64,000 bases of DNA, from NCBI GenBank assembly GCA_963755925.1, contig CAVWLH010000004.1:14858-78857 (forward strand), given 5' to 3'. This DNA is from an uncultured Acidobacteriaceae bacterium. Its GTDB lineage: Bacteria; Acidobacteriota; Terriglobia; Terriglobales; Acidobacteriaceae. Below the pieces are notes generated by a model. It had not been told where the DNA came from and searched no databases. It saw nothing but the letters and a program-made list of their open reading frames with translations. Of the stretch, positions 26,647 through 29,058 are shown piece after piece. Each line of letters opens with the position of its first letter. The first letter of the stretch is position 1. The translations under genes and the position numbers were made by a program.

Positions 26647-29058
26647 CTACTGCGTGAGTTTAATGGCGATGGCGACTGTTCCCCAGTCAAAGCTTCCGAA
26701 ATTCCCTCCCGACCTGTTTATCTGATAGGTTCCGGTTGCCGCCAGGTATAGGTGTCCCGCCTCCGCGTTGCTGGAATTAGGACCATGACCGGGCAAGAAG
26801 TCGGTACCGTCGTCGGAGGGGCAACCGATGGAGGTGCAATTGGGATAAGTGCTCGCGGACGGATCAGCGTCGGTCAGCCAATTCTCCCAATAGGTAATCG
26901 GGGTAAACTGCTTGTTCACTTGCAGCAAGCTACCAAGCAACAAATCCGGTTGGTGGGTAGTGGTAATTAAGCCGGTGGTTACCGTGGGATAAGTGGGGGA
27001 GGGATAAACATAACTCCCGGAATCCACGCCGAAAGTGTCCAGCATCCCGGTAGCGCTGGGTACGTCATAAACCTTCATGGCGGCGGGGTTGGAGTTAGCC
27101 AGCGTCACCACTACTTTGCAGGATGTACGGATCGAACTACCGGAGTACCAGATAACGAGGCCCTCATTGTTGTTAATGGACTGCGATTTGACGACGGTCC
27201 ATGTCGGGGCACATCCGGCGATGCTGGAAGGCATCTCGACCGGGTTTAGCGCATTGGCAATGGTCACCTCGACAAACAACTCGTCCTTAAGGGCAGGCGT
27301 AATCACGGTAGAGGACAGCGAGGTGCCGGAGTCGATTTTGCCACACGCACTCTTAGTCACGTACTTGTCGGTATGAGGAGAGGAGCAATTTCCAGGCGGT
27401 GGAGGGTTCCAGCGACAGAGAACGCCATTGCTGGCCGCGCCTCTTTGGTCCAGAGCACAAGACCAGGCAAGATTGTCGGACATGGCAATGCCGAAAATGG
27501 AACCTTCATTCTGTATGTTGTTCCTGCAAGTAACCAAGGCGGCGCTGTAGTTGTAATTCGAGGGTAGACTCTGGCAAAGAGGAACATAGCTTTGGGCCGG
27601 GGTGATAGGGACGTCGGTACCTCCTGGGGAGAAGATAATCCGGTAGGCCGCTGCGTCGCCTTTATAGGTTTCAGGATCGTTCGGCCAGGTCAAACCACCA
27701 TGAAATACCTGGTGAATCAGATCGTCGCCTACACAAGGGACCGGGTTACCACTGGGGTCCGTAAGATTTCCGCACTTATAGGCGGGAGGTTGAGCCGAGT
27801 ATATGTTTGGGTCTCCCTTGGTTATTAAGGGATTGGAGGAGCCATAGGTAAAGGTGCAGGCCACCTTATGGGCGGGGGCACCAGGATCGTGAGGGCCATT
27901 TTGCTGAGTTAATGGACACTCGGTGGAAGGGGTCTGATAGAACGCCCGGAGCGCGCATACGCCCTTCGTCTGGTTCGCTGGATCGTTGTAATAGCACGAA
28001 GTATATAGGTTCACTCCCCCCTGGTACTGGGTGCAGTCCGAGTCCTGCACGCAGGAATGCCCGTAGGTCACATTAGGATCGGCGCAAAATACGCTTCTGG
28101 CGTAACAGTTGGGGTTGTTGGGATTAATGCACTCCTTATCATTCAGGGCATAGTTGAACTCCTGCTTGCCACAGTTACTGAAGCACGCCAGGGGGTTGTT
28201 GCCCTTCGGCATGGTGGGATCGCCGTTGGCGTCCACAATGACGTAATCGTAGATGCGATTGCCATACTTGTGAATATCCGCGCGAGTCAGGACGAAGCTA
28301 TTGCCGTTTGGATCGGTACAGTTCTGGTTGCTACCTGGATCGTTGGCTCGCAAATCATTTCCAAAGACGGAGAGGGGATAGTTCCAGTTCAACCACATTT
28401 CATTGGTGGGAGCAGAAGGGTCTAAAGCGTCACCTCCGAGGGGCTCGATGTCCATGGTAAGGTTGGCGCCATTCACCAGGCTGATATCGGGGTAGTCGAA
28501 GAACCACGACCCGTCGGGCTGGTAGAAAGTCCATTCGGCAATGGTGCTGTAGCCCGGGGGGCCAAAGGCTCCCGAACTGCAATCGTACTGGTCGCCACAA
28601 CTACCGGTTTCGCACTGCGCGCGGTTGGTCACGGGATCGTAACGGCAGCCGGTGCGGGCCCAGATGTTGGGACCGGTGCTGCCTTTGGGTACGCTGTACG
28701 CCCATTGTGGGGGTACCTGGATGGTCAGGACATTGAGGGGGTTACCGTTGCTGTCGGTGGTGCCATAGGGCTGCATCACCCAAGTCCCCTCTTGCGGGAA
28801 GATGGGATAAGGCGTGTTGGGCGCCATGGCGGCTGCGTTGGCGGCGCCCAGCAGGGTCTGGCAGGAACAGTTAACCAGTTGCAGCGCTCTGACGGCTGGA
28901 GGTATGAGCACGGGCGCGGGAAGGCCATCCAGATAGCTCTGCGAGCACCTGTTTTTCATCTGGGAACACTGAAGTTGCCCTTGGGCGGGCTGGGTAAGGA
29001 GAGACGGGAAAAGTAAAGTGAAAGCCAGGACCAGGTTGAGCGGTCGACGAAGTAACAT
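26647..29058 (-). CDS. large secreted Cys-rich protein with an N-terminal thaumatin-like region and an unknown C-terminal domain
   Basis: Signal peptide LLFPSLLTQPAQG. LQLVNCSCQTLLGAA, NIWARTGCRYD, AQCETGSCGDQYDC, GPPGYSTIAEWTF and DYPDISLVNGANLTMDIEPLGG parallel the conserved thaumatin/PR-5 blocks (FTITNNC..TVW, WGRTGC, CxTGDCGG.L.C, PP.TLAEF, DFYDVSLVDGFNLPM). AAYRIIFSPGG parallels Y.VTFCP. There are 32 Cys and 11 N-x-S/T sequons. Confidence 0.6.
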   Translation of the reverse strand: MLLRRPLNLVLAFTLLFPSLLTQPAQGQLQCSQMKNRCSQSYLDGLPAPVLIPPAVRALQLVNCSCQTLLGAANAAAMAPNTPYPIFPQEGTWVMQPYGTTDSNGNPLNVLTIQVPPQWAYSVPKGSTGPNIWARTGCRYDPVTNRAQCETGSCGDQYDCSSGAFGPPGYSTIAEWTFYQPDGSWFFDYPDISLVNGANLTMDIEPLGGDALDPSAPTNEMWLNWNYPLSVFGNDLRANDPGSNQNCTDPNGNSFVLTRADIHKYGNRIYDYVIVDANGDPTMPKGNNPLACFSNCGKQEFNYALNDKECINPNNPNCYARSVFCADPNVTYGHSCVQDSDCTQYQGGVNLYTSCYYNDPANQTKGVCALRAFYQTPSTECPLTQQNGPHDPGAPAHKVACTFTYGSSNPLITKGDPNIYSAQPPAYKCGNLTDPSGNPVPCVGDDLIHQVFHGGLTWPNDPETYKGDAAAYRIIFSPGGTDVPITPAQSYVPLCQSLPSNYNYSAALVTCRNNIQNEGSIFGIAMSDNLAWSCALDQRGAASNGVLCRWNPPPPGNCSSPHTDKYVTKSACGKIDSGTSLSSTVITPALKDELFVEVTIANALNPVEMPSSIAGCAPTWTVVKSQSINNNEGLVIWYSGSSIRTSCKVVVTLANSNPAAMKVYDVPSATGMLDTFGVDSGSYVYPSPTYPTVTTGLITTTHQPDLLLGSLLQVNKQFTPITYWENWLTDADPSASTYPNCTSIGCPSDDGTDFLPGHGPNSSNAEAGHLYLAATGTYQINRSGGNFGSFDWGTVAIAIKLTQ

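Follow-up and report, generated by a model that had tools for sequence, protein, structure and literature searches.

In a 64,000-nt stretch of DNA from an uncultured Acidobacteriaceae bacterium (contig CAVWLH010000004.1; the whole stretch is called the window below), a reverse-strand open reading frame (ORF) that starts with ATG encodes an 803-aa Cys-rich protein with a thaumatin-like N-terminal region. Our analysis shows that this protein belongs to a known fold family, the thaumatin-like proteins (TLPs), within which its architecture is new; it is already labelled in databases but uncharacterised. Its translation contains 32 Cys and 11 N-x-S/T sequons, and Cys make up 4.0% of its residues as against 0.95% in neighbouring ORFs. 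The same protein, 100% identical, was called on at least five contigs of independent samples, so the gene is truly intact despite assembly indels elsewhere, and the intact 803-aa frame with its 32 Cys stands as an initial annotation, made from the sequence without database searches, had described it. The protein is acidic (pI ~4.6), has a mass of ~83 kDa and is predicted to be exported by Sec and to be rich in disulfides, with 16 predicted S-S bonds. From the N-terminus onwards, the gene and its segments are as follows:

26647-29058, reverse strand: gene of the 803-aa protein.
28978-29058, reverse strand: putative signal peptide, aa 1-27 (MLLRRPLNLVLAFTLLFPSLLTQPAQG, then Q), recognised by eye: RR in the n-region, then a hydrophobic core, with A25 and G27 as the small residues at -3/-1.
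28894-28977, reverse strand: N-terminal extension, aa 28-55, with C31 and C38.
28438-28893, reverse strand: thaumatin domain I (N-terminal strands) and domain III, aa 56-207, with N131, E175, D191 and N196 and the pairs C138-C149 and C154-C160; assigned from PF00314, TLPs in the PDB and Foldseek.
27709-28437, reverse strand: Cys-rich insert at the position of domain II, aa 208-450 (243 aa), with 14 conserved Cys; assigned from conservation and the model.
27619-27708, reverse strand: closing thaumatin strands, aa 451-480, GGLTWPNDPETYKGDAAAYRIIFSPGG; assigned from a sub-threshold profile alignment, the strand at 471-476 and a template-modelling (TM) score of 0.69 to osmotin.
27394-27618, reverse strand: post-thaumatin subdomain, aa 481-555 (75 aa), with Cys 495, 511, 534 and 548 and a helix at 504-516.
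26650-27393, reverse strand: C-terminal all-beta domain, aa 556-803 (248 aa), with 6 Cys; a sequence orphan.

The initial annotation had recognised thaumatin blocks by their order and had proposed a profile search and a structure prediction with fold comparison, and both bore it out. Pfam PF00314 (Thaumatin) matched aa 119-229 with 50.2 bits, well above its gathering threshold of 27.4 (E = 3.5e-13). In a phmmer search of PDB sequences, aa 117-212 matched banana TLP, zeamatin, osmotin and thaumatin (E = 1e-13 to 1e-8); for banana TLP and zeamatin, E was ~1e-13 and identity 36-40% over ~95 aa. BLASTP aligned thaumatin I at 36% identity over 105 aa. The AlphaFold2 model of the protein, built from 64 homologues (predicted local distance difference test score, pLDDT, 86.7; predicted TM score, pTM, 0.89), shows a domain I beta-sandwich closed by N- and C-terminal strands (predicted strands at aa 57-63, 69-73 and 471-476) together with a domain III loop. 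Foldseek comparison of this predicted, not experimental, structure with the PDB gave 15 significant matches, every one a TLP at a probability of 1.00, among them thaumatin itself (1thv, E = 4e-7) and the bacterial TLP 7p22 (E = 1.6e-5). The osmotin match has a target-normalised TM score of 0.69 over 425 alignment columns and, at that length, bridges the Cys-rich insert; Mal d 2 and Pru av 2, like osmotin, gave alignments of 315-425 columns that run into or across it.

By sequence alone, two blocks fall below significance, LQLVNCS near the N-terminus and, far from it, AAYRIIFSP towards the C-terminus. In hhalign, the family profile aligned to thaumatin in just the core 80 columns, so these two outer blocks rest on the structure model. 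A sub-threshold alignment of the family profile to banana TLP sets 'hgaYtWPNDP..YrivfaP' against 'dAYSYPKDD..YRVVFCP', and W458-P459-N460-D461-P462 is nearly invariant in the family. Thus, of the blocks read from the letters, the central ones are confirmed by PF00314 and the PDB TLPs, and the first and last by structure, not by sequence statistics. The PROSITE thaumatin signature, which we take to be G-x-[GF]-x-C-x-T-[GA]-D-C-x(1,2)-[GQ]-x(2,3)-C, is unmatched: the protein has N-R-A-Q-C-E-T-G-S-C-G-D-Q-Y-D-C, with N for G, A for [GF] and S for D, and the family consensus at the D position is G. NCBIfam has no family for the protein, nor for the 629-aa membrane protein encoded beside it (see below). 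NCBI labels cluster members 'thaumatin family protein', and the thaumatin likeness is thus already in databases. Judged by these profile matches and the model together, aa 1 to ~480 truly form a domain of the thaumatin family into which a very large, Cys-rich segment is inserted, and in the model its sandwich is complete, made of aa ~56-207 and 451-480.

At the putative cleavage site of the leader the family consensus is xA before Q, and within the leader pLDDT is below 50, as expected if it is cleaved off. In the N-terminal extension, C38 is kept in 52 of 64 homologues, and C31 co-occurs with C66 in the family, which suggests that these two form a clade-specific extra disulfide. Two of the eight canonical thaumatin disulfides can be mapped, C138-C149 as the equivalent of C56-C66 and C154-C160 as the equivalent of C71-C77. 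The latter pair is always lost jointly (both Cys in 63 sequences, neither in 11, a single one in none). The equivalent of Cys9 is present (C64), with Ser477 at the position of its partner Cys204, and the remaining Cys are located in the insert with non-canonical spacing; the 16 conserved Cys in eight disulfides that mark TLPs (10 Cys in small TLPs) are thus not found here. The disulfide map, against which the initial annotation had proposed to check the Cys spacing, therefore agrees in part, since only two of the canonical disulfides are kept. The very Cys-rich insertion between the blocks, also noticed at the outset, is real: each of its 14 Cys is kept in at least 61 of 64 homologues, W222, D235, R237, R259 and Q423-P424 are invariant, and most of it is modelled at pLDDT 80-95, with dips to 51-69 near aa 241-270, 301-310 and 381-390. 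No Pfam family matches the insert or the C-terminal domain. The post-thaumatin subdomain is also found in short forms of ~530 aa, which match the protein up to ~aa 550.

In TLPs, Glu84, Asp97 and Asp102 make glucan contacts and form the expected catalytic centre, with Asp185 completing the acidic cleft, and TLPs of family GH152 are proven beta-1,3- and beta-1,3-1,4-glucanases. The HMMER alignment to banana TLP places N131 at Arg43/44, E175 at Glu83/84, D191 at Asp96/97 and N196 at Asp101/102, and D461, within the WPNDP motif, falls at the Asp184/185 position in a sub-threshold alignment with a possible one-residue offset. We surveyed these five positions (Arg-Glu-Asp-Asp-Asp, or REDDD, in plant TLPs) in proteins extracted from 77 reference-genome loci. 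None of these proteins departs from E175, D191 and D461, the last of which occurs in 75 of 75 family sequences without a gap there, so that the cleft is under strong constraint across the family. Positions 131 and 196, the first and fourth of the motif, co-vary without exception: R goes with D (16 of 16 cases) and N with N (42 of 42). A complete REDDD is found in 16 of the 77 loci, carried by Methylocella silvestris, Nitrospira, Binatia, deltaproteobacterial MAGs (metagenome-assembled genomes) and 950-aa acidobacterial forms, and both the R/D and the N/N states occur in Acidobacteriota and in Alphaproteobacteria. This pattern suggests that positions 131 and 196 are an interacting residue pair and that the family comprises two ancient subtypes. 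To our knowledge, the catalytic residues of GH152 have no experimental proof.

The C-terminal domain, which the initial annotation could not assign, remains without a Pfam match, and PHROG gave none at E <= 1. Exhaustive phmmer against 1.84 billion representatives returned 32 matches, all of them C-termini or fragments of the same family, and a word-indexed search for the domain in other protein architectures gave only truncated gene calls of that family. Modelled alone with AlphaFold2, the domain reaches a pLDDT of 89.4. Its comparison with the PDB yielded no convincing fold match (best E = 5e-3 at TM <0.3, weak jelly-roll/cupin-like noise). BFVD gave 55 matches at E <= 1e-3 with TM scores of 0.5-0.7, the best being a 257-aa protein of an uncultured Caudovirales phage (E = 1.9e-9, TM 0.71/0.69, root-mean-square deviation 2.8 A, 243 columns), and several others are mycobacteriophage 'minor tail proteins'. 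No sequence link to phage proteins was found by tblastn against 50,697 phage records (best E = 3), and we therefore treat the likeness as a fold shared between predicted structures, which may serve as a lead for a glycan- or surface-recognition role of the domain. Among the sampled relatives the domain is confined to Acidobacteriota; outside that phylum its place is taken by Ig-like domains of the He_PIG or HYDIN/VesB type, or by Pro/Thr linkers. Such swappable modules are a pattern typical of secreted carbohydrate-active proteins. The long homologues at loci L066, L069, L077 and L081 (MAGs of Binatia, Thermodesulfobacteriota and delta/proteobacteria) have, where the orphan domain would be, linkers rich in Pro/Thr and Ig-like modules, and the proteins of L069 and L081 end with a hydrophobic segment with Arg clusters before or after it, which might be a C-terminal anchor or sorting signal.

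At least 274 related bacterial clusters are present in the protein database and 99 related loci in reference genomes. They come from at least eight phyla and include Acidobacteriota, with the 800-aa form in Terriglobales, and, with a ~530-aa core form, Alphaproteobacteria (Methylocella, Beijerinckiaceae, Xanthobacteraceae), Methylococcaceae, Nitrospira, Rokubacteria, Binatia, Thermodesulfobacteriota/deltaproteobacteria and one Mycobacterium MAG; the source samples are mostly peat and soil. At least 10 MAGs have two or more copies, and the protein's own genome has at least two, the protein itself (cluster P0001) and a 45%-identical one (P0037), both clusters listing one contig. The closest relatives, at 85-87% identity, belong to sister Terriglobales species, and paralogues are 43-57% identical. 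By sequence, plant TLPs are the nearest solved structures; the actinobacterial 7p22 and the fungal 7p23 were found by fold only. Because the relatives are bacterial, spread over this many phyla and deeply paralogous, a recent eukaryote-to-bacterium transfer is not supported, nor is the term 'eukaryote-like' of the initial annotation, which had suggested horizontal acquisition; the family is a large bacterial one, and the gene was inserted from other bacteria. An ancient inter-domain transfer, in either direction, may have taken place; the block of sequence that aligns with confidence measures only ~90 aa. TLP reviews of 2011 and 2026 deal with TLPs from plants, animals and fungi only, and our search of the searchable library found no paper on bacterial TLPs.

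Plant PR-5 TLPs (1z3q, 1du5, 4l2j, 1thv) have in common with the 803-aa protein PF00314, the domain I sandwich and the domain III loop with two disulfides, the motifs WARTGC, C-x-TG-x-CG, LAE[FW], D-IS-V-[DN]-G-x-N and Y-R-[IV]-x-F, Glu84, Asp97 and an Asp in the Asp184/185 region, as well as predicted secretion and an acidic pI. At the same time, they have ~205 aa and a domain II of ~50 aa with four disulfides, whereas the protein described here, from a bacterial host, has a domain II of 243 aa with seven putative disulfides and two extra C-terminal modules, reads N-E-D-N-D instead of R-E-D-D-D, and keeps two of the eight disulfides, with Ser477 facing the Cys9 equivalent. The GH152 enzymes Lentinula edodes TLG1 and Bemisia tabaci Bta13961 resemble it in fold family (PF00314 is common to both), in partly conserved cleft acids and in a plausible beta-glucan ligand; it differs from them in having Asn at the Asp102 equivalent and in being multi-domain. 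The Amycolatopsis rifamycinica TLP (PDB 7p22) is likewise a bacterial thaumatin fold, but it is a single domain of 220 aa without the insert and the C-terminal modules, and neither the protein nor the family profile matched it in sequence searches. Closer in architecture are the ~530-aa proteins of Methylocella tundrae and M. silvestris (WP_174512490.1, WP_134491753.1; 'thaumatin family / Thaumatin pathogenesis-related'), which share the expanded core (aa ~40-550) at 39-41% identity, with insert and post-thaumatin subdomain, but lack the 248-aa C-terminal domain; the M. silvestris copy has the full REDDD. Finally, the tailed-phage proteins A0A6J5N098 (BFVD), X2KSL9 (Hawkeye) and A5YJY9 (Tweety) resemble the C-terminal domain in predicted fold, with an identity of only 9-19% and no support from hidden Markov model or BLAST searches, and the fold has no solved member.

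We consider it rather probable that the protein is a secreted modular binder of a beta-glucan-type polysaccharide, which would use the conserved cleft and carry a second targeting module at its C-terminus; the ligand, any catalysis and the role of the C-terminal domain we infer. After export by Sec and oxidative folding, the thaumatin core, of PR-5 or GH152 type, would keep the beta-sandwich and the cleft face, while the lid (domain II) would have grown into a 243-aa module with seven disulfides, reshaping the lid of the cleft. The most plausible ligand, a beta-1,3-glucan or a beta-glucan of mixed linkage derived from the debris of fungi or plants in peat or acidic soil, would be bound in the cleft lined by the invariant E175, D191 and D461, and the C-terminal domain could act as a second glycan- or surface-targeting module. 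GH152-like hydrolysis is possible, though less certain in this N-E-D-N-D copy and likelier in paralogues of the REDDD type. The gene would have reached its locus as a single-gene unit from other Terriglobales.

Several points weigh against this interpretation. The PF00314 alignment covers only positions 33-115 of the 209 in the profile, and only the two canonical disulfides mapped above, out of eight, are kept. At the cleft, the protein reads N131-E175-D191-N196-D461, or three of the five REDDD residues, with Asn (N196) in place of the Asp102 equivalent; since it belongs to this N-E-D-N-D subtype, binding can be inferred more safely than hydrolysis. Many activities of the TLP class are non-catalytic, and the enlarged domain II could close or repurpose the cleft. 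Finally, the phage likeness of the C-terminal domain is that of one predicted structure to another, without sequence support or a PDB counterpart.

Instead of a tool for nutrition, the protein could be a weapon without catalysis, an antifungal or a glucan lectin that, in the manner of osmotin or zeamatin, binds fungal wall glucan and permeabilises or inhibits the fungus. We regard this as unlikely, yet as likelier than the alternatives that follow. In its favour, the fold and the acidic-cleft residues are common to PR-5 antifungals, the N-E-D-N-D subtype lacks one of the three proposed catalytic residues, and the expansion of paralogues in genomes resembles that of a defence or arms-race gene family. 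The C-terminal domain, being like predicted phage proteins of which some are named tail proteins, fits such a role too, as phage tail proteins would typically recognise cell surfaces. However, we found no evidence for antifungal bacterial TLPs, the way in which plant TLPs permeabilise is itself ill defined, and a protein of 83 kDa is very unlike a PR-5 protein of 22 kDa. The same tail-protein likeness could also be read as that of a cell-surface or matrix protein for the bacterium's own exopolysaccharide (EPS) or for neighbouring bacterial envelopes, working as an adhesin or in EPS remodelling with the C-terminal domain as its anchor to surface glycan. Terriglobales are prolific EPS producers, and some relatives end in Ig-like modules and others in Pro/Thr linkers followed by hydrophobic C-terminal segments, but the absence of conserved EPS-biosynthesis neighbours, of a lipobox and of a recognisable sorting signal in the protein, together with conserved cleft residues that favour the classical TLP ligand, makes this improbable in our view.

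The remaining explanations are weaker still. Recent horizontal acquisition from a eukaryote (plant or fungus), followed by enlargement, might be argued from plant TLPs being, by sequence, the nearest solved structures (E ~1e-13, 36-40% core identity), with 7p22 and 7p23 found by structure only, and from the position of the gene in an inserted segment of lower G+C. Against this stand the bacterial relatives at 85-87% identity, the spread over at least eight phyla and the deep paralogy; moreover, the expanded architecture is common to the bacterial family and absent from the eukaryotic TLPs seen, and the low G+C is largely compositional and found in all paralogues. The 11 sequons, which the initial annotation had counted correctly and which might have been taken for a eukaryotic signature, are rejected as such, their number being at chance level (9.5 +/- 2.8 in shuffles, P = 0.36), and only one of them is conserved in the family. 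We therefore hold such an acquisition to be highly improbable. Least probable of all, in our estimation, is that the protein inhibits glycoside hydrolases, as TLXI of wheat does with xylanase, or that it is an ice-binding (antifreeze) TLP. TLXI is among the weak PDB sequence matches (3g7m, E = 0.0024), and many source samples are peat or permafrost-type soils, but small TLPs of the TLXI type are without domain II and an organised acidic cleft, whereas in this family domain II is enlarged and the cleft residues are retained, and no ice-binding-like surface was noticed, though no dedicated test was made.

A bolder idea, which we put forward as doubtful speculation, is that the deepest diversity of the thaumatin fold lies in soil bacteria, with this family sister to, or the source of, eukaryotic TLPs, and that the 800-aa acidobacterial forms couple a glucan cleft to a phage-like fold, forming a new surface-targeting class for fungal or bacterial cells. 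The first part of this idea is raised by the occurrence of members with an intact REDDD in at least eight phyla and by plant PR-5 proteins being the closest solved structures by sequence; the second, if true, would amount to a previously unrecognised class of surface-targeting protein with fungal or bacterial cells as its targets. Apart from this speculation, the analysis shows that bacteria of peat and soil possess a large family of TLPs of much greater size, with canonical cleft residues conserved, the lid domain greatly enlarged and C-terminal modules that can be exchanged, set against reviews that name plants, animals and fungi. A single characterised member would show if GH152-type chemistry or PR-5-type glucan recognition works in bacteria, and its study would assign a function for the first time to a beta-domain fold that is known elsewhere only from predicted phage proteins, and would also help to root the thaumatin superfamily. 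The family could mark bacterial use of, or antagonism to, fungal biomass in acidic soils.

A small islet of mosaic make-up contains the gene, and in it we distinguish, besides the gene itself:

24278-29629, no strand: islet of 5.35 kb with the thaumatin-family gene and a gene for a 629-aa membrane protein, between Ysc84 and lipid A acyltransferase.
24388-26277, reverse strand: polytopic membrane protein of 629 aa, without a Pfam family; its G+C at third codon positions (GC3), 0.59, is the lowest in the region.
29059-29629, no strand: upstream region of the thaumatin-family gene inside the islet, with a hairpin repeat and a copy of a dispersed intergenic repeat.

The site is empty in ~50 relatives, where Ysc84 immediately precedes the lipid A acyltransferase. 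At one such locus (L089), the flank proteins are 92-99% identical to those of the window, DNA homology stops at 24277 and restarts at 29630, and a ~290-bp spacer stands where the window has 5.35 kb, which demonstrates an insertion at the Ysc84/acyltransferase junction. Thus the horizontal acquisition suggested in the initial annotation holds as far as the insertion goes, as the empty sites show, but its eukaryotic donor does not. Around orthologues at loci L011 and L012 (85% identical), homology ends at the limits of the coding sequence and none of the flanking genes of the window is near, and the gene has therefore moved among Terriglobales as a single-gene unit. The G+C content of the gene is indeed lower than that of its flanks, as first noted (55.8% against ~61-63%), and is so at first codon positions (0.52 against ~0.65 in neighbours) as well as in GC3 (0.66 against 0.71-0.79). 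However, all paralogues have 56-58% G+C, and the dip is largely a matter of amino-acid composition common to them all.

Neither an integrase nor a transposase was found in the islet, nor terminal direct or inverted repeats at its boundaries; the window has no tRNA, Rfam and tRNA scans of it giving nothing, and a scan of the gene's region for sigma-70 promoters and terminators did no better than shuffles and gave no convincing promoter. A 34-nt hairpin-forming repeat occurs twice, at 29230-29271 and 29562-29595, 332 bp apart, the second copy ~35 bp inside the right boundary of the insert, with no further copies in the window at up to three mismatches. A dispersed intergenic repeat of ~45 nt, ending ...CTCGGGATGACA, is present at 20587-20631, 22854-22898 and, upstream of the thaumatin-family gene, 29442-29486; it may be an element of the lineage resembling a repetitive extragenic palindrome (REP) or a miniature inverted-repeat transposable element (MITE). 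The junction, which separates two core genes, is a variable hot spot, vacant in most relatives: at L102 it holds a DedA/rhodanese membrane protein, and at L170 a homologue of the 629-aa membrane protein next to Ysc84, together with a methyltransferase-like gene and without a TLP gene. An upstream fragment at L170 that we considered as a possible TLP was rejected, being methyltransferase-like.

The homologues of the 629-aa membrane protein are widespread and uncharacterised (Bordetella, Ralstonia, Burkholderia, Legionella), many of them ~790 aa long, and one UniRef name among them is 'Glycosyltransferase RgtA/B/C/D...'. We rejected it as a functional partner because it is absent beside other TLP genes of the family and sits at L170 in the absence of one. 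A conserved operon partner was rejected as well, the neighbours being unrelated at five loci of the family; the family's genes stand alone, without conserved neighbours.

The rest of the window is core chromosome, with flagellar export and basal-body genes, LpxD, RuvB, HemA, ThyX and GDP-mannose genes. A near-identical contig of another sample (L001) differs by 1.2%, with 32 indels in 22.5 kb (window positions 16555-39058), and several ORFs of the window, for example in the RuvB region at ~21950-22810, are probably frameshifted by sequencing errors. An apparent FlhB-FlhA 'fusion' ORF at 39600-42770 on the forward strand (1056 aa, matching Bac_export_2 and FHIPEP) was rejected as an assembly frameshift artefact, because the canonical FlhB C-terminus with NPTH lies in another frame and ends in a stop codon. 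Two low-complexity features complete the picture: a tandem array of a 13-nt unit (CACTTCAGTTCAG) in ~11 copies at 58103-58255, upstream of the glutamyl-tRNA reductase gene (59077-60396), and a purine-rich (A/G) tract of ~125 nt at 45661-45786, with a shorter related stretch at 42811-42850.

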